Part shown: positions 3,372-59,133 of the stretch, in pieces
How the letters are laid out: each line of letters begins with the position of its first letter
Position numbering within the stretch: the stretch's first letter is position 1
Assembly (NCBI GenBank): GCA_026395175.1
Contig: JAPLZF010000019.1
Span: 3,115-67,114 of the forward strand
Length of the DNA: 64,000 nucleotides
Origin: Candidatus Staskawiczbacteria bacterium
Lineage (GTDB): Bacteria; Patescibacteriota; Minisyncoccia; Minisyncoccales; Staskawiczbacteraceae
Direction: 5' to 3'
The notes under the pieces: generated by a model
Seen by the model: the letters and a program-made list of their open reading frames with translations, nothing else
What the model was told of the DNA's origin: nothing
Database searches by the model: none
Program-made: the position numbers and the translations under genes

Positions 3372-3640
3372 GTGATTTTATAGAGCGTAGCGAATAAAAT
3401 CATCCCGAGTCCCTACGGGACGAGGGAATGCCTTATCAAAAAATTAAACTCTAAATTACTTCATTATATCACTTCAGCATTTTCATTCAAGTTCACCCTG
3501 TTAAATAATTTTGCTTTGCAAAATTAAAATCCAAAGGATTTTATTTAACATGGTAAATTTTTGCACAATAAAAAAGGCCTCCAGTCCACCGAAGCGAACC
3601 ATTGGCCTCAACGCCATTCATATCAGAACGGGCGTATCAA

Positions 3641-5234: not shown

Positions 5235-5346
5235 GGCAATTCACCTCCCTTCAGAAGTTTAGCTTGCCTGCCGTCCCACGATGCGGGAATTATTGTCAAG
5301 TTACACACGTCAATCGTATAATTTATTTCATATATTGTCAATTTTT

Positions 5347-5383
5347 ACAACAAAATACCCCACTTTTTTGAAGTGGGGTATTT
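5347..5383 (-). terminator. rpoC intrinsic terminator
   Basis: AAATACCCCACTT-loop-AAGTGGGGTATTT perfect stem followed by T-run on minus strand, 10 nt after rpoC stop. Confidence 0.75.
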
Positions 5384-5393
5384 GCTAATTTTT

Positions 5394-8300
5394 TTATTCC
5401 TCTTCGTCTTTGACTTTTGGAATAAAGCCTGTGCCTACTGGAATTAATTTTCCAATAATTACGTTTTCTTTTAATCCGCGAAGTTTGTCTTCTTTGCCTT
5501 CAAGACATGCTTTAATTAAAACTCTTGAGGTTTGCTGAAAGGAAGCCGCTGACAAGAATGATTCTGAGTTTAAGGCAACTTCAGAAATTCCAAGCAATAT
5601 TTGCACGCCGGTTGGCGGAATTTTTTTGTCTTTCTTCAACCTGTCGCATTCTTCGTTGAAAATTTCTCTTTCAACAACTTCTCCCCTTATCCAGTCAGAT
5701 TCGCCCTCTTCTTTAACTTTCACTCTTGAAAACATCTTTTGGATAATTACTTCAATGTGTTTGTCGTTAATATCAACACCCTGTGAAGAATAAATTTTCT
5801 GCACTTCCTGCAAAATATATCTTTGGGTTGGTTCAACGCCGGCAGATTTGTAAAGCTTTTTTAAATCCAAACTTCCTTCGCACAATGGTTGGTTTTCCTT
5901 AATTTCCTGGCCTTTTTCAACAATAATTGCAATTCTGCCGGGAATTTTGTATTCCATTGTTTCTTTTTTCAAAGCTGATTTCTTGCCTTCTTTTTCTTGT
6001 GCCACGGGCTGAATTCTAATAATTCTGTTTTCTTCATCAATTGAAAGAACTTTTCCTGCTGTCAAAGACATTATTGCTTCTCCTTTTGGCGCTCTGCATT
6101 CAAAAATTTCTTCAATTCTTGGCAAACCTTGCGTAATGTCGCCTGCTCCCACAATTCCTCCCAAATGGTGAGTTCTTAAAGTAAGCTGTGTGCCAGGTTC
6201 TCCAATTGCTTGAGCTGCAACAATTCCAACTGCCTCTCCCAATTTAATTGAAGCATTTCTGCCCAAATCCCAGCCATAACATTTTTGACAAACTCTCTGA
6301 GAAGATTTGCAGGTTAATGGTGAAGCAACAATTACTCTTTCTATTTTTTCATCAACTGCAATTGCTTTGGCAGCCTGCCAATTTATAATTTCGCCTTTCT
6401 TTACTGAAATATCTCCTGATTGGACTGATTCTAAAGCAGTTCTGCCGACAATTTTGAAAACAAAATCTTGTTCAATTAAGTCTGCGTCTTTTTTGTAAAC
6501 AACCAAGCCTGCTTTGTCTCCGCAGTCTTCGTCGGTAATAATTACGTCGTGAGCCACGTCAACCAATCTTCTTGTTAAATATCCTGCAGAAGAAGTTCTT
6601 AAGGCTGTGTCGGCTGTTCCTTTTCTGGCTCCGTGAGTTGAAATGAAATATTCCAATACATTAAAGCCTTCGGTAAAAGATGATTTCACCGGAAGCTCAA
6701 TAATATCTCCTGAAGGATTGTTCACCAAACCTTTCATTCCTGCCATCTGGACGGGTTGGGCCCAAGTGGCTCTGGCGCCGGCTGTAATAATTGACATAAC
6801 CGGACCATCTGGCGGTAAAGTGGTTTTCAACAAGGCTTCAAGTTTTGTTTTGACTGTCTGCCAAATTAAAATCTTCTGAGATGTTTTTTCATCTGGGCTC
6901 AAAAGTCCTTTTTCAAAGTGGCTGTCAATTTTTCTTACTTCATCTTCTGCTGCGTCAACCAATTCTTTCTTTTCTTTTGGAACAATCAAGTCATCCATTC
7001 CCCATGAAACGCCAGATAACGTGCAATATTCAAATCCCAATGTTTTAATTCTGTCTATAATTACAACTGCTTCCTCATTTGGATATTTTTCAATAATTTC
7101 TCGGACAATGCCTTTTAATTGTTTGTTATCAACCAATCTGTTCACAAAAGGATAGTCATACGGCAAAACATCATTCAAAATTAATCTGCCCACGGTTGTC
7201 TCAATCATTTCAATCTTTTCAACGTTTTTTGGACTTGGAACTTTTATCAAATCGTTTTGGCCCAAAAATCCATATTCAAAAGCTGTTGTGGCTTCCGAAG
7301 CGCTTGAGTATGTTTTTATTTTTTTTGTGTCTGAAACATCCTGCAATCTGTTTAGTTTTGTCAAAAAGTAGCAACCCAAAGCAATGTCGCGGAATGGTCC
7401 AATTACCGGCATTCCGGTTGCAGGCCTTAAAAGATTTAATGTTGAAAGCATAATTTCTCTGGCTTCTTTTTGAGCCTCGTCTGACAAAGGCAAATAAACC
7501 GCCATTTGGTCGCCGTCAAAGTCAGAGTTGAAGGCTTCGCAAACCAACGGATGTAATTTTATTGTTTCTCCTTCTGTCAAAATTGGTCTAAATGCTTGAA
7601 TGCCAAGCCTGTGCAAAGTTGGAGCCCTGTTCAACAGAACCAACTTGTCTTTGATAATTTCTTCTAAAATTGCCCAGACATCCGGGGTTTTTTCTTCAAC
7701 CAATCTGGCAGCTCCCCTAATGTTGTAAGCCAATTCTTTGTCTAAAATTCTTTTGATTACAAATGGTTTGAAAATTTCCAAAGCCAATGTTTTTGGCAAA
7801 CCGCATTGAGAAAATTTTAATTCTGGCCCCACCGCAATAACAGATCTGCCAGAATAGTCCACACGTTTTCCCAAAAGGTTTTGTCTGAATCTTCCCTGTT
7901 TTCCTGCCAAAATGGCGGCCAAAGATTTTAACAATCTTTTGCCTCCTGTGGTTGCGGTTGTCGTGACTCCTTTTCTCATTTCGTTGTCAATTAAGGCGTC
8001 AACAGCTTCCTGCAACATTCTTTTTTCGTTACGCACAATTACCGGCGGAGCTTTTATTTCCTGCAAATATTTTAACCTGTTGTTTCTGTTGATGACTCTT
8101 CTGTACAAATCGTTTAAGTCAGAAGAAGCGTATCTTCCGCCGTCCAACTGAACCATTGGTCTTAAATCTGGCGGCAAAACAGGCAAAACATCCAGAAACA
8201 TCCATTCTGGCTTAACTCCCGCTTTCAGCATTCCCTGAAAAAGTTTTAACCTTCGTAAAATTTTCTTTTTTGTTGCCGGCGGAGCATTTCTGGCTTCCTC

Positions 8301-8996
8301 GGCAATTAATTCTGTTTCCTTTTTTAAATCAATTTTTTCAAAAATCTTTTTCACAACTTCAGCTCCTGTTCCCGCCTCAAAAACTTCTCCATATTTCATG
8401 GACAAAGTATGATAAACAACTTCAGACAAAATTCTCATTTCCTTAATTTCTAAAACTTCTTCCTTGGCTTTTTCTCTTGCCTGTTTTAAGTCATTTTTGG
8501 CGGCTTCTGTTTTTTCTTTCTTCACTTTTGACTTGTATTCTGATTCAATTGCATCCAAAATTCCGTCTCTGGCTTTTTCGTCAACTTTTGTAATAATATA
8601 TGAAGAAAAATAAATAACTTTTTCCAGTTGCTGAGATGATTTATCCAAAACCAAACCCATTCTTGAAGGAACTCCCCTTAAAAACCAAATGTGAGATACC
8701 GGAGTATATAATTTAATGTGCCCCATTCTTTCTCTTCTTACAGATGACTTTGTAACTTCAACTCCGCATCTGTCGCAGACAACCCCTTTGTATCTTATTC
8801 TTTTATATTTTCCGCAAGCGCATTCGTAATCTTTTTCAGGACCGAAAATTCTTTCATCAAAAAGCCCGTCCTTTTCAGGCTTTTGAGTTCTATAATTAAT
8901 TGTTTCCGGTTTAATTACTTCTCCGTGAGACCAGGACATTACATCCTCGGGAGAGGCAATTTTGATTCTTATTGATTCTAAGTCTAATACTCGCAT
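5394..8996 (-). CDS. rpoC: DNA-directed RNA polymerase subunit beta'
   Basis: 1200-aa ORF; zinc-binding CxxC motifs near N-terminus, NADFDGDQM catalytic motif (here NSDFDGDQMAV). Confidence 0.98.
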   Translation of the reverse strand: MRVLDLESIRIKIASPEDVMSWSHGEVIKPETINYRTQKPEKDGLFDERIFGPEKDYECACGKYKRIRYKGVVCDRCGVEVTKSSVRRERMGHIKLYTPVSHIWFLRGVPSRMGLVLDKSSQQLEKVIYFSSYIITKVDEKARDGILDAIESEYKSKVKKEKTEAAKNDLKQAREKAKEEVLEIKEMRILSEVVYHTLSMKYGEVFEAGTGAEVVKKIFEKIDLKKETELIAEEARNAPPATKKKILRRLKLFQGMLKAGVKPEWMFLDVLPVLPPDLRPMVQLDGGRYASSDLNDLYRRVINRNNRLKYLQEIKAPPVIVRNEKRMLQEAVDALIDNEMRKGVTTTATTGGKRLLKSLAAILAGKQGRFRQNLLGKRVDYSGRSVIAVGPELKFSQCGLPKTLALEIFKPFVIKRILDKELAYNIRGAARLVEEKTPDVWAILEEIIKDKLVLLNRAPTLHRLGIQAFRPILTEGETIKLHPLVCEAFNSDFDGDQMAVYLPLSDEAQKEAREIMLSTLNLLRPATGMPVIGPFRDIALGCYFLTKLNRLQDVSDTKKIKTYSSASEATTAFEYGFLGQNDLIKVPSPKNVEKIEMIETTVGRLILNDVLPYDYPFVNRLVDNKQLKGIVREIIEKYPNEEAVVIIDRIKTLGFEYCTLSGVSWGMDDLIVPKEKKELVDAAEDEVRKIDSHFEKGLLSPDEKTSQKILIWQTVKTKLEALLKTTLPPDGPVMSIITAGARATWAQPVQMAGMKGLVNNPSGDIIELPVKSSFTEGFNVLEYFISTHGARKGTADTALRTSSAGYLTRRLVDVAHDVIITDEDCGDKAGLVVYKKDADLIEQDFVFKIVGRTALESVQSGDISVKKGEIINWQAAKAIAVDEKIERVIVASPLTCKSSQRVCQKCYGWDLGRNASIKLGEAVGIVAAQAIGEPGTQLTLRTHHLGGIVGAGDITQGLPRIEEIFECRAPKGEAIMSLTAGKVLSIDEENRIIRIQPVAQEKEGKKSALKKETMEYKIPGRIAIIVEKGQEIKENQPLCEGSLDLKKLYKSAGVEPTQRYILQEVQKIYSSQGVDINDKHIEVIIQKMFSRVKVKEEGESDWIRGEVVEREIFNEECDRLKKDKKIPPTGVQILLGISEVALNSESFLSAASFQQTSRVLIKACLEGKEDKLRGLKENVIIGKLIPVGTGFIPKVKDEEE

Positions 8997-9094
8997 AATT
9001 TTCGAGCGAAGCGAGGAAATTACACTGAGCTTTAGATGGATATATCGGTTTCATTATCTAAAGCGAAGTGTATGCCTTGCTAGTTTTTAATTTT

Positions 9095-21558: not shown

Positions 21559-21605
21559 ATTATATTCTTTAACAAAATAGCAAGCAACATATAGGGTGTG
21601 GATAA
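21559..21605 (-). promoter_or_regulatory. Promoter of pilin paralog 1 with upstream TTATCCACA box
   Basis: minus strand TTATCCACA (21597..21605) - 9 nt - TTGCTT - 17 nt - TATAAT. Confidence 0.6.
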
Positions 21606-22137: not shown

Positions 22138-22179
22138 TTTGTTATTATTTTATTTTTTAAGCTCGACCTTTCTTAAATA

Positions 22180-22587
22180 TTATGGACAAACTGTGGCATC
22201 AAAATCGGCGCAAGCGGCAGTAACTGATTTCTTGGTTCCAGAACTGTCAACGCACCAATAATTTGCGGCTGTTGTAAGCAATTGAGAACAAGCGGCCCAT
22301 TCTGTAGCGCTTTCGACGCATACTTTGTCTGCTGTTGCTGATGGGTCTTGGTCAAAGATAGGTTTTCCGGCGGCAAAATTGGCAGCGCAGAATCCTGTGT
22401 AAGTATGATTTGTATCGTAGAATGTGGCTCCGTTTGTAAGCAAGGTTGCCATGTTTCCTTCTATTGCCGCGTCTTTGCCCTTGTTGATGTATTGGGTGAC
22501 ATTAACCAACACTATGGCGGCCAATACCGCGATAATTGCGATAACGACGATTAATTCAATAATTGTAAAACCTTTTGATTTATTCAT
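22180..22587 (-). CDS. Type IV major pilin paralog 3
   Basis: MNKSKGFTIIELIVVIAIIAVLAAIVLVNVTQYINKGKDAA; divergent C-terminus. Confidence 0.88.
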   Translation of the reverse strand: MNKSKGFTIIELIVVIAIIAVLAAIVLVNVTQYINKGKDAAIEGNMATLLTNGATFYDTNHTYTGFCAANFAAGKPIFDQDPSATADKVCVESATEWAACSQLLTTAANYWCVDSSGTKKSVTAACADFDATVCP

Positions 22588-22628
22588 TTTATTTTTTAAG
22601 TTTAAATTGTTTAATTTATTAGATTTTC

Positions 22629-22679
22629 TATACTTCGCCTTACGGCTCAGTATCTCGCCCCGTCAAACGGGACTCGACC
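22629..22679 (-). promoter_or_regulatory. Conserved two-hairpin 5' leader element, copy 1
   Basis: minus strand GGTCGAG-TCCCG-loop-CGGGG-CGAGATACTGAGCC-GTAA-GGCGAAGTAT; near-identical copy at 46751..46805 with compensatory stem changes. Confidence 0.5.
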
Positions 22680-22697
22680 TTTTTTATATTTTACTTC

Positions 22698-22743
22698 ATT
22701 TTACAGAATTAAAGATATTGACGCAATAGCAAGATGTGGATAA
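22698..22743 (-). promoter_or_regulatory. Promoter of pilin paralog 3 with upstream TTATCCACA box
   Basis: minus strand TTATCCACA (22735..22743) - 8 nt - TTGCGT - 17 nt - TAAAAT. Confidence 0.55.
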
Positions 22744-22805
22744 CTTCGTAGCGAGCAAGGCGAGCGGAGATCCTGACGCCCGAAGGCGGAAGGATAATAA
22801 CTGAT

Positions 22806-23279
22806 TTAATCAGGGCAGTGCGTTATATCCTCTCCGTCTGGACAAATGGTAATATCGCCAACGCAATGGTTATAGCATATTTCTTTTTTCATTCCCCTGC
22901 TGTCAACACAAAAAGCCAAATTCGGATTTGTAAATTCCCTGGCGCAGGCAGCCCATGCTTGGGAAATGGCGCCGCAACAAGCTCCGGTGGGATTCGAATT
23001 TTCGTCGTAGCATATAGTTGAAGGATTTGCCGGCGCTTGGGAAGCGATATTTGCAACAACAGGGGAAGTGCAAAAACTGACTCCTTCTTTGTTATAGCTG
23101 TTGCCGTTGTTGTTATAAAAAACTTCTCCGGCAGGAATTAAAATAGCCAAACTGCCGGAAACATTAGCGTCTTTACCCCTGCTGATGTATTGAGTAACCG
23201 AAAACAAAATAATTCCGGACAAAACAGCGGTTATCGCAATAACAACAACTAATTCTATAATTGTGAATCCTTTATCCAT
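22806..23279 (-). CDS. Type IV pilin paralog 4 (more divergent)
   Basis: start moved to MDKGFTIIELVVVIAITAVLSG (internal Met of the 172-aa track ORF, avoiding overlap with pilC); Cys-rich C-terminus. Confidence 0.8.
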   Translation of the reverse strand: MDKGFTIIELVVVIAITAVLSGIILFSVTQYISRGKDANVSGSLAILIPAGEVFYNNNGNSYNKEGVSFCTSPVVANIASQAPANPSTICYDENSNPTGACCGAISQAWAACAREFTNPNLAFCVDSRGMKKEICYNHCVGDITICPDGEDITHCPD

Positions 23280-30078: not shown

Positions 30079-30116
30079 ATTATACAATAAAATCAATAAA
30101 ACAACCCTGTGGATAA
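30079..30116 (-). promoter_or_regulatory. pilM upstream region with TTATCCACA box and TATAAT
   Basis: minus strand TTATCCACA (30108..30116) ... TATAAT (30079..30084) 10 nt before the pilM ATG; -35 not convincing. Confidence 0.4.
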
Positions 30117-46372: not shown

Positions 46373-46705
46373 CTAAACATGCATAGCTGTACCCACTATC
46401 GCAAGTATCGAATAAGCAAGAATACCAACTACTATACCTGCTATTCCCCAAATCGCGGCTGTCCTCGCTGTTGCAACTTTTTCTGGAGCTCCTCCTGCTG
46501 TTAAAAACAAAATACCGGCTACCACAAAAGAGATTACAGCTATTGCCCCGAATATCATCCATACAAAAGTTTCAATAGATGTTATTAAATTACCTATATT
46601 TCCAATTCCTCCCACTGTTGGGGGTGTATTTGCATCTAGAGCAAATACCACAACTGGCAAAAGCAAAGCGCCGAGTGAAGCTAAAGTTATTTTAATTTTT
46701 TTCAT
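46373..46705 (-). CDS. VirB2/TrbC-like small membrane protein, paralog d
   Basis: same architecture; loop LTAGGAPEKVATARTA. Confidence 0.6.
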   Translation of the reverse strand: MKKIKITLASLGALLLPVVVFALDANTPPTVGGIGNIGNLITSIETFVWMIFGAIAVISFVVAGILFLTAGGAPEKVATARTAAIWGIAGIVVGILAYSILAIVGTAMHV

Positions 46706-46750: not shown

Positions 46751-46805
46751 GATACTTCGCCCTGAGGCTCAGTATCTCGACCCCGCTCATGCGGAGTTCT
46801 CGACC
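46751..46805 (-). promoter_or_regulatory. Conserved two-hairpin leader element, copy 2
   Basis: minus strand GGTCGAG-AACTCCGC-atga-GCGGGGT-CGAGATACTGAGCC-TCAG-GGCGAAGTATC. Confidence 0.5.
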
Positions 46806-46816
46806 TTTATAAATTT

Positions 46817-47194
46817 TTAAAAGAAATTTTTGAAATAAGTTAATGCTGCGCTTGCCCCAGGTTGTGCTTGCACACCAATAATTCCTTGTATAATTCCAAC
46901 TATTGTTTTTGCCGCTAACCCTATGGCTATTCCAATTATAGCATATACTAAAGCTTTTTTGGCTGTGCCCATTCTTTCAGGACTGCCTGCTGAAGTAAGA
47001 TACAGAATTCCTGCAACCACAATCATCATACCTCCCAAAACTGCGATAAGGTCTCCAACTGCACCGGCAATGCCCAAAAGAAGAGCGGAAAAGTCATTAT
47101 ATTTTAATGGATTTGTTAAACCTTGAGCTGAAACAAAGCTTGCCAAGCAGAATAAATCTACAAATACGACTAAAAAAATTATTTTTTTATTCAT
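46817..47194 (-). CDS. VirB2/TrbC-like small membrane protein, paralog e
   Basis: start moved to MNKKIIFLVV because TATAAT overlaps the track start; loop LTSAGSPERMGTAKKA. Confidence 0.6.
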   Translation of the reverse strand: MNKKIIFLVVFVDLFCLASFVSAQGLTNPLKYNDFSALLLGIAGAVGDLIAVLGGMMIVVAGILYLTSAGSPERMGTAKKALVYAIIGIAIGLAAKTIVGIIQGIIGVQAQPGASAALTYFKNFF

Positions 47195-47201
47195 TAAAGT
47201 C

Positions 47202-47249
47202 ATTATACAACTTTACACAAAATATATGCAACACTCTGCTTGTGGATAA
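47202..47249 (-). promoter_or_regulatory. Promoter of the VirB2-like gene array with upstream TTATCCACA box
   Basis: minus strand TTATCCACA (47241..47249) - 9 nt - TTGCAT - 18 nt - TATAAT, then 7 nt to ATG (near-leaderless geometry). Confidence 0.55.
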
Positions 47250-47334: not shown

Positions 47335-49854
47335 TTACTCTTTTAGGCATGCTCCCGAGGCAACTTTGTCGCCGTCTTCCAACCGCATTATTCTTACCCC
47401 TTGCGTTGCCCTGCCCAACAAAGATATTGATTTTACGCTTGTTCTTATAACCTGGCCTTTTCTGGAAATAACAATCAAATCTTCTTCTTCGGCTGAATCT
47501 TCCAAGATAGATGAAAGTATTGCGTGTCCGGTTTTGCTTGTAATTTTTGCCGCTTTAACTCCAGACCCTCCTCTGCCCTGAATTTTGTACTGGGAAATTT
47601 CTGTGCGCTTTCCATATCCGTTTTCCATAACCATCAACAAATACTGCTTTGCCTTATTTTTGTCTATGACATCCATTCCAATAACTTCGTCTCCGCCCTT
47701 CAAGCGCAAACCTTTTACTCCGGCAGCTCCTCTGCCCATAGGCCTTATATCTTTCTCTTTAAATCTGATAGAAATTCCGTTTTTGGTTGCCAAAATTATG
47801 TCATTTTCGCCTGTTGTTTTAACAACTTTTTTCAAGGCATCTCCTTTTTCAAGCTTTATGGCAATAATTCCGGATTTTCTGACATTTTCAAATTCCGACA
47901 AATCTGTCTTTTTAATTCTGCCGTTTTTTGTAATCATTACCAAATATTTCTCTTTACTGACAGCTTCTTTGCCGGGAGCCGGTTTTTCCATTGGCACTAA
48001 CGACAAAACCTTTTCTTCGTTGGAAAGCTCCAAAAAGTTTAAAAGTCCTCGGCCTCTGGCGACCCTGTTGCCTTCCGGAATTTCGTAAACCTGTGTTTGG
48101 AAAACTTTTCCGGAATCTGTAAAAAACATTAAATTGTCATGCGTTGAGGCGGTCAAAAAATGCTCAACAATGTCGTCTTGCATTGTTTTCATTCCCATAA
48201 TTCCTTTTCCGCCTCGTTTTTGAATTTTGTAAGTTGCAGGATTTATGCGTTTTATGTATCCGCCGGTTGTTAAAGTAACAATTGTTTCTTCTAAAGGAAC
48301 CAAGTCAACTTCGGTAATTTCTCCCAGCTTTCCTTTGACAACTTTTGTTCTTCTTTTATCTCCAAATTTTTCTTTCAGTTCTAAAAACTCTTTTTTGATA
48401 ATAGATTTCAGTCTTTCCGGGCTCTTCAAAATTGCCATCAAGTCTTTTATTTGCTCTAAAATTGCTTTCAGCTCGTCTTCTATCTTTTTTCTTTCCAATC
48501 CTGCCAGTGTTTGAAGCCTCATTTCCAAAATTGCCACTGCCTGTCTTTCGGTAAGCTTAAATTTTTTAATTAAATTGACTCGGGCTTCTTCCTTATCTGC
48601 TGATTTTTTAATTGTTTGAATAACCGCGTCAATATTTTTTAAAGCAACCATTAAGCCCTCTAAAATGTGCGCCCGCTCTTTGGCTTTTTCTAAGTCATAT
48701 TTTGTTCTGCGGGTTACAACCTCTTCTCTGTGCTTGATAAAATATTTTAAAACATCTGACAAAGACAAAATTTCAGGCTGAATGCCGTCAACCAAAGCCA
48801 GCAAATTCAAGTGGAAAGTTTTTTGCAAACTTGTAAATTTATAAAGCCTGTTTAATGTCCTTTGAGGCTGAAATCCTCTTTTTATATCAATAACAATTCT
48901 CATTCCTTCCCTGTCTGACAAATCGCGAATGTCTTTTATTCCTTCAATTTTCTTTTCAGAAACCAATTCCGCCATTTGCTCAACCAAAGTTGACTTTAAA
49001 ACCTGGTAGGGGATTTCTGTAATTATAATTTGTTCAGAACCGTCTTTTTTTTCTACAACATCTGCTTTGCCTCTCATCAAAATAGCTCCCTTGCCTTGAG
49101 AATAAGCAGAAATTATTTCTTTTTGGTCGTAAATTATTCCGCCGGTTGGAAAATCTGGGCCTTGAATAAATTCAAATAAATCTTCTGTTTCTGCTTTTGG
49201 ATGGTCTAGCAAATGTATAGAAGCATCTAAAACTTCTGTTATGTTGTGGGGCGGAATATTTGTTGCCATCCCAACTGCAATTCCCAAACTTCCATTTAGA
49301 AGCAATTGTGGCAAAGGCGAGGGCAAAACAGTTGGTTCTTGCGTTGAGCCGTCATAGTTATCAATAAACTTAACAGTGTCTCTTTCAATGTCGCGCAGCA
49401 TTTCGTCTCCAATTTTTGACAATCTACACTCTGTATAACGGGCAGCGGCAGCACCATCGCCGTCTATACTGCCAAAGTTTCCTTGGCCGTCAACCAAAGT
49501 GTAGCGCATGTTAAAATCTTGCGCCATTCTGACCAAAGACTCATAAACTGCTGTATCTCCGTGCGGGTGATAACTTTTTAAAACTTCTCCAACAACCGCC
49601 ATAGACTTTCTGTGCTTTGTGTTTGACCGCAATCCAGAATCCATCATTGCATACAAAATCCTTCTGTGGACTGGCTTTAACCCATCTCTGACATCGGGAA
49701 GAGCGCGCGCCACAATAACTGACATTGCATAATCAATGTATGATTCTTTAAGCTCTGTTACCATTTCCCTTTGGCTCACATTTCCTCTGTTGCTGTCTCC
49801 TTGCTTCCCGTCTTCTTGAGCGTGGGCTCTTGATTTTTTATCTTCTTCAGCCAT
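47335..49854 (-). CDS. gyrA: DNA gyrase subunit A
   Basis: 839-aa ORF; active-site region [10 protein letters not shown], GyrA-box-type C-terminal beta-pinwheel repeats. Confidence 0.96.
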
Positions 49855-59111: not shown

Positions 59112-59124
59112 AAAAGCAAAAAGT

Positions 59125-59133
59125 TATCCACTT
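59125..59133 (+). promoter_or_regulatory. TTATCCAC(T) box (8 of 9) upstream of HTH/LAGLIDADG-like paralog 2
   Basis: followed by TTGTCT - 17 nt - TAAAAT. Confidence 0.35.

Follow-up and report, generated by a model that had tools for sequence, protein, structure and literature searches.

The 64-kb window analysed here (64,000 nt of one contig) comes from a Candidatus Staskawiczbacteria metagenome-assembled genome (MAG); NCBI lists proteins identical to its pilin and type IV secretion system (T4SS) pilins under that name. It carries two copies of a short RNA module in which two hairpins with tandem G.A loops are set back to back. The module is an orphan conserved cis-acting RNA motif of unusual dumbbell design that is absent from RNA family databases, and it is very likely a functional structured RNA element. 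Altogether 13 distinct copies were found on ten Patescibacteria-type contigs, all of them sense to the flanking genes, and the messages that hold it in their untranslated parts code for very abundant proteins.

Architecture of the module

The module is about 45-75 nt long and consists of three conserved strands, S1 ((A)GGUCGAG), S2 (CGAGAUACUGAG) and S3 (CGAAGUAU), with two variable tips between them. S1 pairs with the first half of S2 and S3 with the second half, which gives GUC-GA-G[tip]C-GA-GAU for hairpin 1 and (AU)ACU-GA-G[tip]C-GA-AGU(AU) for hairpin 2. As GUC pairs with GAU and the GA dinucleotides face each other, hairpin 1 is built like hairpin 2: each starts from a 3-5-bp basal stem, followed by a symmetric tandem G.A/A.G loop, then an invariant G-C pair and a tip that is free in length and sequence. 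With (AU)ACU and AGU(AU) forming the basal stem of hairpin 2, the element is almost wholly helical. On S2, a continuous strand, one basal stem directly adjoins the other without a linker, so that the fold is a dumbbell with the flanking mRNA entering and leaving at its centre. For A27 and U28 of S2 there are two possible partners, S1 and the last two bases of S3. Among the copies the smallest hairpin-1 tip has 2 bp and the largest 10 bp plus a loop of 22-25 nt, and hairpin-2 tips run from a bare 5-nt loop to 4 bp. The stem of the hairpin-1 tip has a sequence unique to every copy with the pairing always kept. In both hairpins GA is predicted to lie opposite GA in 13/13 copies, with covarying pairs on either side.

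Both window copies lie on the minus strand (Table 1), where the initial annotation had placed them, and share the layout aGGUCGAG-[hairpin]-CGAGAUACUGAG-[hairpin]-CGAAGUAU. Written as DNA, copy 1 reads GGTCGAG / TCCCGTTTGACGGGG / CGAGATACTGAG / CCGTAAGG / CGAAGTAT and copy 2 GGTCGAG / AACTCCGCATGAGCGGGGT / CGAGATACTGAG / CCTCAGGG / CGAAGTAT; the corresponding RNAs are aGGUCGAG-UCCCGUUUGACGGGG-CGAGAUACUGAG-CCGUAAGG-CGAAGUAU and aGGUCGAG-AACUCCGCAUGAGCGGGGU-CGAGAUACUGAG-CCUCAGGG-CGAAGUAU. The letters downstream of S3 are AGAAAAUC and CGAUUCAA at the two copies. In S1 of copy 1 the GA makes up half of the tandem G.A loop and the final G pairs with C22657. Sequence and fold bear out the earlier description of hairpin-1 stems that are unlike yet paired, and the loops differ as well (UUUGA vs AUGA in hairpin 1, GUAA vs UCAG in hairpin 2). 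The tandem G.A/A.G described for hairpin 2 is also seen in the fold, and it is present in hairpin 1 too. The same annotation had regarded the shared 5' part GGUCGAG and the CGAGAU of the invariant segment as single-stranded, but these pair as GUC/GAU plus tandem G.A/A.G. Its signature of a functional RNA is thereby partly upheld: the element is structured, has compensatory changes, is strand-specific and has homologs elsewhere, whereas the conserved segments are paired strands.

The 28-nt pattern CGAGATACTGAGCCNNNNGGCGAAGTAT, which spans the invariant segment and the second hairpin, has exactly two matches in the window with ≤3 mismatches permitted and was matched by 0/100 dinucleotide-preserving shuffles of the window. 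The G+C content of each copy is 54-57% vs 37.6% for the window. Each copy forms two hairpins, with fold z-scores against shuffles of -3.7 (copy 1) and -4.0 (copy 2), while the antisense folds are weaker (-2.2 and -2.7, respectively). The module is strand-specific, in that the sense strand folds better and every copy is sense. Two covariance models, R1 and R2, were built in this analysis and scored copy 1 at 73.5 and 52.6 bits and copy 2 at 72.2 and 51.3 bits. When the window was searched for further diverged copies, R1 gave nothing >9 bits and R2 only weak hairpin-2-like matches.

Table 1. Coordinates of the module copies, their parts and related features (window positions unless a contig handle, L followed by a number, is given)
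Feature	Position	Strand	Remark
Module copy 1 (class A)	22679..22630	(-)	42 nt 5' of ATG of type IV pilin paralog 3
Copy 1, S1 GGUCGAG	22673..22679	(-)	GUC is 5' half of hairpin-1 basal stem
Copy 1, hairpin-1 tip UCCCG-UUUGA-CGGGG	22658..22672	(-)	Sequence and fold
Copy 1, S2 CGAGAUACUGAG	22646..22657	(-)	C-GA-GAU (hairpin 1, 3' half) and ACU-GA-G (hairpin 2, 5' half)
Copy 1, hairpin-2 tip CC-GUAA-GG	22638..22645	(-)	Sequence and fold
Copy 1, S3 CGAAGUAU	22630..22637	(-)	C pairs with G22646, then loop GA, then AGU(AU) of basal stem
Module copy 2 (class A)	46805..46752	(-)	Between two T4SS-pilin (PF18895) genes; 46 nt 5' of ATG at 46705
Copy 2, S1 GGUCGAG	46799..46805	(-)	Sequence
Copy 2, hairpin-1 tip A-ACUCCGC-AUGA-GCGGGGU	46780..46798	(-)	One bulged A; sequence and fold
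Copy 2, S2 CGAGAUACUGAG	46768..46779	(-)	Sequence
Copy 2, hairpin-2 tip CC-UCAG-GG	46760..46767	(-)	Sequence and fold
Copy 2, S3 CGAAGUAU	46752..46759	(-)	Sequence
Type IV pilin paralog 3	22180..22587	(-)	3' of copy 1; homologs carry PF07963
T4SS pilin (VirB2/TrbC-like)	46373..46705	(-)	3' of copy 2; homologs carry PF18895
First T4SS-pilin-like gene	46817..47203	(-)	5' of copy 2; orthologs carry PF18895/TrbC
gyrA	47335..49854		Precedes first T4SS-pilin-like gene
Candidate promoter of copy 1 and pilin gene	22698..22726	(-)	TTGCGT, 17 nt, TAAAAT
Stand-alone S1 motif AAGGUCGAG	22162..22170	(-)	No partner strands; 9 nt past stop of pilin paralog 3, 24 nt before ATG of paralog 2
Stand-alone AAAGGUCGA(G), pilin and T4SS-pilin loci	L029 9931, 10441; L032 9970; L033 9917; L035 ~5841; L036 ~5898; L037 ~5947
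Stand-alone AAAGGUCGA(G), further sites	L004 3506, 7913; L007 7569
TTATCCAC	22736-22743; 21598-21605; 47242-47249; 30109-30116	(-)	Also in L029, L032, L033, L037
TTATCCAC	59124-59131	(+)
Gene beside looser dumbbell 8996-9072	5394..8996	(-)
T4SS pilin beside its homolog in L003	starts L003 4041	(+)

Homologs and covariation

The initial annotation had proposed a comparison with Rfam and a covariance-model scan. Rfam 15 matched only the 11 tRNA genes of the 64-kb window at gathering thresholds, and at E ≤ 10 only noise of 8-14 bits was found around the two copies (GOLLD, rli43, GcvB and LSU_trypano_mito); a known RNA family was accordingly rejected. Partial look-alikes in L012, L018, L020 and L013 matched no known RNA either, and our literature searches on RNA motifs of the candidate phyla radiation, Shine-Dalgarno usage and L10 leaders turned up no account of the module. 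The scans for homologs brought the total to the 13 copies mentioned above.

One genome per GTDB species was scanned with only S2 and S3 fixed in the pattern. This gave 9 loci. In 8/9 an upstream (G)GUCGAG is also present, unforced, together with a hairpin whose sequence is unrelated. Labels of the records are Patescibacteria group, Nomurabacteria, Staskawiczbacteria and Paceibacterota, and there are three probably mis-binned MAGs besides. Of 19 loci from a metagenome scan, five are true copies and about eleven, which lack S1, are bare chance matches; L016 and L017 were added in this way. With homologs in other genomes, the module behaves like a functional RNA and not like a chance match. No match was found in the viral contigs searched (0 matches), and a phage origin was rejected. 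The L003 contig is labelled Aenigmatarchaeota, yet it is gene-for-gene syntenic with the Staskawiczbacteria gyrA-T4SS-pilin locus and is probably mis-binned. The same probably applies to the L008 contig, labelled Gammaproteobacteria, with its two module copies between nusG and rplK.

Two diverged copies, referred to as class B, were found with R1 and R2. The one in L009 (4148-4211) reads GUUGAG...CGAAAUCCCGAG...CGAGGGAC, and the one in L008 (~5318-5415) reads UUGAG...CGAAAUCCUGAG...CGAAGGAG and directly abuts a class A copy. Relative to class A, a C-G pair of the hairpin-1 basal stem is changed to U-A, and UACU/AGUA of the hairpin-2 basal stem is changed to UCCC/GGGA or UCCU/AGGA. All four GA dinucleotides are kept.

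For the covariation analysis the 13 real copies were aligned to R2 and pairs were counted from this alignment. Standard pairs occupy 95.3% of the cells vs 81.2 +/- 1.8 in shuffles (0/500 shuffles reach the observed value), changes on both sides are seen in 7/12 pairs, and the covariation score is 0.358 vs 0.102 in shuffles. When the partners are shifted by 1-3 columns, pairing falls to 21-45%. RNAalifold independently predicts the same two hairpins. The counts lend support to every stem.

Genomic contexts and the stand-alone S1 motif

Copy 1 lies within the 5' untranslated region (UTR) belonging to the gene for type IV pilin paralog 3; a Candidatus Staskawiczbacteria MAG has an identical protein under a prepilin-type name. 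Copy 2 shares a syntenic arrangement, gyrA - T4SS pilin - module - T4SS pilins, with L003, L006 and L017. The placement given earlier therefore stands for copy 2, between two VirB2-like genes, and for copy 1 5' of the pilin gene, while the promoter assigned to copy 1 is a candidate only. From this promoter S1 of copy 1 would begin about 12-15 nt into the transcript. The layout TTGCRT-17/18-TAWAAT is also kept in L029 and L032. A consensus scan did not flag the site because the first hexamer matches at 3/6 positions only, and promoter scans of the window were uninformative, its DNA being AT-rich. Two -35-like hexamers, TTGCGT (-) and TTGACG (+), share letters within ATTGCGTCAAT, a hint of a bidirectional promoter.

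Other copies are found in quite different settings. In L004 and L007 the module overlaps the last codons and the stop of rplL, ahead of the rplL terminator, and GUC GAG of S1 encodes the V-E of ...KVELK*. In L009 the class B copy is 35 nt 3' of rplL and the class A copy lies within the rplJ leader, a genuine L10 leader (Rfam RF00557, 55.8 bits; gathering score 44) whose apex it interrupts as an insert of 61 nt. The two tandem copies in L008 lie between nusG and rplK-rplA, and the copy in L016 lies in the spacer between thrS and infC(AUU start)-rpmI-rplT. In L002, L014 and L021 the module is 58 nt 5' of mscL. Translation operons make up 5/8 independent locus types, and the others encode abundant envelope proteins. 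In cultured Paceibacteria T4SS pilins are among the most highly expressed genes (PMC10936435). A leader tied to pilin and VirB2-like genes, as first proposed, does not fit these contexts: orthologous pilin loci and 3/7 T4SS-pilin spacers lack the module, most other copies are in ribosomal-protein or translation operons, and some are in 3' positions.

Between the module and the next start codon there are 42 to ~180 nt, no copy has a U-tract 3' of the module, and a terminator scan of 22550-22850 found none. The module is therefore neither an intrinsic terminator nor a switch masking the ribosome-binding site (RBS). A small open reading frame (ORF) or leader peptide was rejected as the conserved core is in different reading frames in the two window copies.

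Some of these loci have features of their own. In L009 (4100-4260, minus strand) the class B module is flanked by two diverged rplL C-terminal coding segments, ...KTKLTAAGATVELK* ahead of the module and KAKLTTAGATVELK* beyond it, and it looks as if a piece with a replacement gene end and the module has been inserted. In L008 (5250-5450, plus strand) a class A and then a class B module follow each other head to tail, with repeated promoter-like boxes in the hairpin-1 loops (CACTAAGCTATAAT, TTACTAAGTTATAAT and a third farther along). In L016 (~1800, plus strand) infC seems to start at AUU after an AAGGAG box, ~60 nt 3' of the module; AUU is the autoregulatory start codon of IF3 in other bacteria. 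Matches to the Rfam L10 leader were seen at the rplJ leaders of L004 (4439-4574, 44.1 bits), L009 (5305-5490), L042 (2851-2986, 66.2 bits) and L039 (2814-2994), and at neither window copy. Patescibacteria rplJ leaders end in a terminator-like hairpin just 5' of the ATG, which fits attenuation control of the Bacillus type, and their apical parts are variable; the apex in L004 is a lone AUCCC-GA-...-GA-GGGA hairpin.

The module is gained or lost among related genomes at the same sites. With filters off, no module was found in L029-L034, with three orthologous pilin loci reached through pilin homologs, and 3/7 orthologous T4SS-pilin spacers (L035, L036, L037) hold AAAGGTCGR only. Six further rplJL loci (L039-L045) lack it as well, and a conserved rplL 3' element was rejected on this ground. 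The pilin and T4SS-pilin orthologs without the module retain AAAGGUCGA(G) at the same position. Such stand-alone sites (Table 1) occur in 5' UTRs and intercistronic spacers of pilin, T4SS-pilin and other genes, 24-90 nt 5' of start codons and often 5-20 nt past a -10-like box. Among the AGGTCGA sites in 180 kb of Patescibacteria loci, 16/19 are intergenic (one flagged solely for overlap with an ORF on the opposite strand), and almost all lie in the sense direction ahead of a start codon. As S1 alone is kept at orthologous sites and in other UTRs, it appears to be an older and wider UTR signal to which the module adds pairing partner strands. AGGUCGA is also present in Patescibacteria L10 leaders, as ...CCGAGGUCGAA... 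on the 3' side of a conserved stem, which we read as the non-bulged strand of the leader kink-turn. A Shine-Dalgarno role of AAAGG was rejected, the motif lying 24-90 nt from start codons in a genome poor in such sequences: in the window a Shine-Dalgarno-like sequence is present no more than 20 nt from the start in about 4-8/45 long ORFs, and leaders are A-rich.

Another motif, TTATCCAC, matches the DnaA-box core and is found ~50-58 nt 5' of AGGTCGA at pilin promoters and also 5' of the first T4SS-pilin gene. It has 5 matches in the window vs 1.5 expected, with 3/100 shuffles reaching 5, and may be a common promoter or regulator site.

Possible roles and rival explanations

As the core is conserved and the tips are free, it is the core that may be recognised by a protein or a nuclease. 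Combined with locations close to 5' ends, in the gaps between cistrons and at the rplL 3' end, this makes message "punctuation" the most economical reading. We tentatively propose, as a reading that may well prove wrong, a cis-acting mRNA module that is sporadically gained and acts on processing or stability. An RNA-binding protein or a ribonuclease would act in trans by recognising the G.A-containing core; the module might mark, mask or present the older AAAGGUCGA site, and a stable hairpin could be left on the end of each flanking message segment. The output of high-expression genes might thus be raised or uncoupled, with processing, stability or translation affected. The rplL product, for one, is needed in several copies per ribosome. 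As a functional analogy only, 5' and 3' stabiliser hairpins of mRNAs and the RNase III processing signals of phage T7 occupy similar sites in highly expressed genes (close to transcript 5' ends, intercistronic or at 3' ends). Their sequences are barely conserved, if at all, or they are long duplexes, whereas the module has a specific 27-nt conserved core. It is doubtful, though conceivable, that the dumbbell is a dedicated Patescibacteria punctuation fold working with the paired AAAGGUCGA signal. It would then either mark cut sites and withstand exonucleases, as viral exonuclease-resistant RNAs do in function, or have a single global RNA-binding protein as its reader, and the ribosome stalk, IF3/L35/L20, pilins and T4SS pilins would form a post-transcriptional regulon.

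Several points weigh against the punctuation reading. We infer transcription, processing and the binding factor from the sequences. The module is missing at most orthologous loci, which is unusual for an essential regulator and would also suit a spreading element. The alignment behind the pair counts was fitted to the model, the basal-stem covariation rests on the two class B copies, and the core invariance of class A is partly ascertainment since the search pattern fixed that core. G.A-loop hairpins in general are in no clear excess (GA 117 vs CT 98 and AG 53), and neither are dumbbells (GA 6 vs AG 5). Lastly, looser dumbbells in the window lie opposite to their flanking genes, so that strand specificity may fail for the wider architecture, which may be transcribed antisense or act otherwise.

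The module shares with tandem sheared G.A motifs, kink-turns and K-loops the facing GA on each strand, the flanking Watson-Crick stems and the combination of invariant GAs with covarying stems. Kink-turns and K-loops are bound by L7Ae-family proteins, L10 and others. The G.A and A.G pairs of a kink-turn are tandem, of trans sugar-Hoogsteen type and adjoin a helix, a geometry to which the facing GAs of the module may conform. The short hairpin-2 copies come closest to K-loops, with only 7-9 nt between the two GAs. A kink-turn differs in that the loops of the module are symmetric (2x2) with no 3-nt bulge, the flanking pairs are conserved and two units are fused back to back. A K-turn with a bulge was rejected because the alternative register with a GAA bulge needs U at 2b and loses five Watson-Crick pairs.

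Another reading is a feedback operator for ribosomal proteins, in which the module would mimic an rRNA site of the stalk or GTPase-associated centre, bind L10(L12)4 or another ribosomal protein and couple the operons to ribosome assembly. GGUCGAG of S1 is identical to nt 1106-1112 of E. coli 23S rRNA, which we take to lie directly after the 1051-1108 L11-binding stretch of the stalk base, at H42. The identity hints at a connection with stalk-protein recognition, yet S1 and S2 pair in another register than H42, with no 3-nt bulge, and an exact mimic of H42 was rejected. L10(L12)4 recognises a kink-turn (tandem G.A) together with UAA in the leader and in 23S rRNA (PMC4538822). Translation operons are well represented among the locus types, four of them in the rplK-rplA-rplJ-rplL cluster, the L10-leader apical hairpin of L004 is shaped like hairpin 2 of class B, and the L009 copy is nested in a bona fide L10 leader, where a G.A kink-turn mimics H42 as in other Patescibacteria rplJ leaders. 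Yet the canonical kink-turn of that leader (AAGACAG / CCGAGG) is separate from the module, the module also lies 3' of rplL and beside non-ribosomal genes, with the pilin, T4SS-pilin and mscL contexts unfitting, and six other Patescibacteria rplJL operons do without it. We consider such an operator unlikely. A dispersed mobile or recombining DNA repeat (of the repetitive extragenic palindromic (REP), miniature inverted-repeat transposable element (MITE) or Correia type), or a hairpin signal in single-stranded DNA, would need no RNA role at all and would account for the patchy distribution, with "empty" orthologous sites retaining AAAGGTCGA only. Many copies end in ..GTAT-NGA, which gives TCGA-like short repeats around the inserted part, the class B copy of L009 lies between two diverged rplL ends, one copy is inserted within another RNA element, and related dumbbells occur on the other strand. 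Mini-hairpins of the GCGAAGC type are very stable in DNA too. REP elements, bacterial interspersed mosaic elements and Correia elements are, like the module, short UTR hairpin elements that are present or absent at orthologous sites and can be stabilisers or processing sites. What speaks against this is, above all, that copies in the same genome have the same core but wholly different stems and loops with compensatory changes, the opposite of recent transposition, and that the core is kept between lineages at the class level, the stems covarying and not being copies of one another. A dispersed repeat present on either strand, which the initial annotation had named as its refutation, does not agree with the strict copies: 13/13 are sense, with a chance of ~2^-11 for 11 distinct loci. 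The window, a 64-kb sample of the genome, has two copies only, with different stems, and the numerous near-identical copies in both orientations expected of a REP/MITE-type repeat were not seen there; viral contigs have none. GA on both arms of the same strand breaks the symmetry of a DNA palindrome and therefore indicates a single-stranded structure on one strand. Taken together, a DNA repeat without an RNA role seems improbable.

An aptamer sensing a small ligand or ion, which would tune abundant-protein genes to the growth state in the manner of a riboswitch, is very improbable. The ~27-nt conserved core with freely variable peripheral stems is typical of aptamers and growth-rate-linked genes adjoin the module, but there is no evident expression platform, neither a terminator nor an RBS-sequestering helix is adjacent, the spacing to the start codon is variable and the gene contexts are mixed. 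Copies in L004, L007 and L009 lie 3' of the regulated-looking gene, and the almost fully helical fold has no obvious pocket. A new small self-cleaving ribozyme that cuts polycistronic messages would share the patchy distribution, varied contexts and variable stems typical of this group, and the 5' strand-hairpin-strand-hairpin-strand topology, with two closed hairpins joined by a conserved strand, recalls the type III hammerhead; so does GA-[G...C]-GAA at hairpin 2, which resembles G8 A9 / G12 A13 A14 around stem II. However, there is neither a CUGANGA uridine-turn core nor the context of an NUH cleavage triplet, and the equivalents of C3-N7 are AUACU paired with AGUAU. The conserved strands are all paired with no evident active-site loop, and no Rfam 15 ribozyme family, hammerhead included, matched even at E ≤ 10. 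The hammerhead was rejected, and we give hardly any credence to a ribozyme in general.

Patescibacteria are ultra-small bacteria that account for a large share of bacterial diversity, and to our knowledge almost nothing is known of how they control gene expression. The module is a conserved RNA structure on messages for stalk proteins, IF3-L35-L20, pilins involved in host attachment and DNA uptake, and T4SS pilins. Together with the wider short UTR signal AAAGGUCGA it offers a concrete handle on post-transcriptional control in this group, and it is small, with four GA dinucleotides and exchangeable stems as obvious targets for mutation. Should it link stalk proteins, IF3/L35/L20 and pilins, this would be a regulon in organisms largely without Shine-Dalgarno-based control. 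If it is only a variant of a stabilising hairpin, its value is modest, as one more orphan RNA motif for Rfam.

Looser double G.A-hairpin structures were also seen in the window at 3372-3430, 8996-9072 and 22751-22795, on the plus strand with flanking genes on the minus strand. They were not counted as members since they are without the S1/S2/S3 core. Those at 3372-3430 and 22751-22795 are paired hairpins with tandem G.A loops between minus-strand genes, the latter ~70 nt from copy 1 in the opposite orientation. The structure at 8996-9072 has a homolog at L003 3963-4039 (minus strand) with the shared inner stem UUUAGAUGGAUAUAU...AUCUAAA. Both are immediately 5' of a start codon (Table 1) with the GA strand opposite to the gene, and could represent either antisense RNA that spans the start region or a hairpin of the mRNA whose loops are U.C. 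A single tandem G.A-loop hairpin in L006 (4934-4964, plus strand), CGUCCU-GA-GUUUAUC-GA-AGGACG, lies between convergent genes with an A-run and a U-run on its flanks and looks like a bidirectional terminator.

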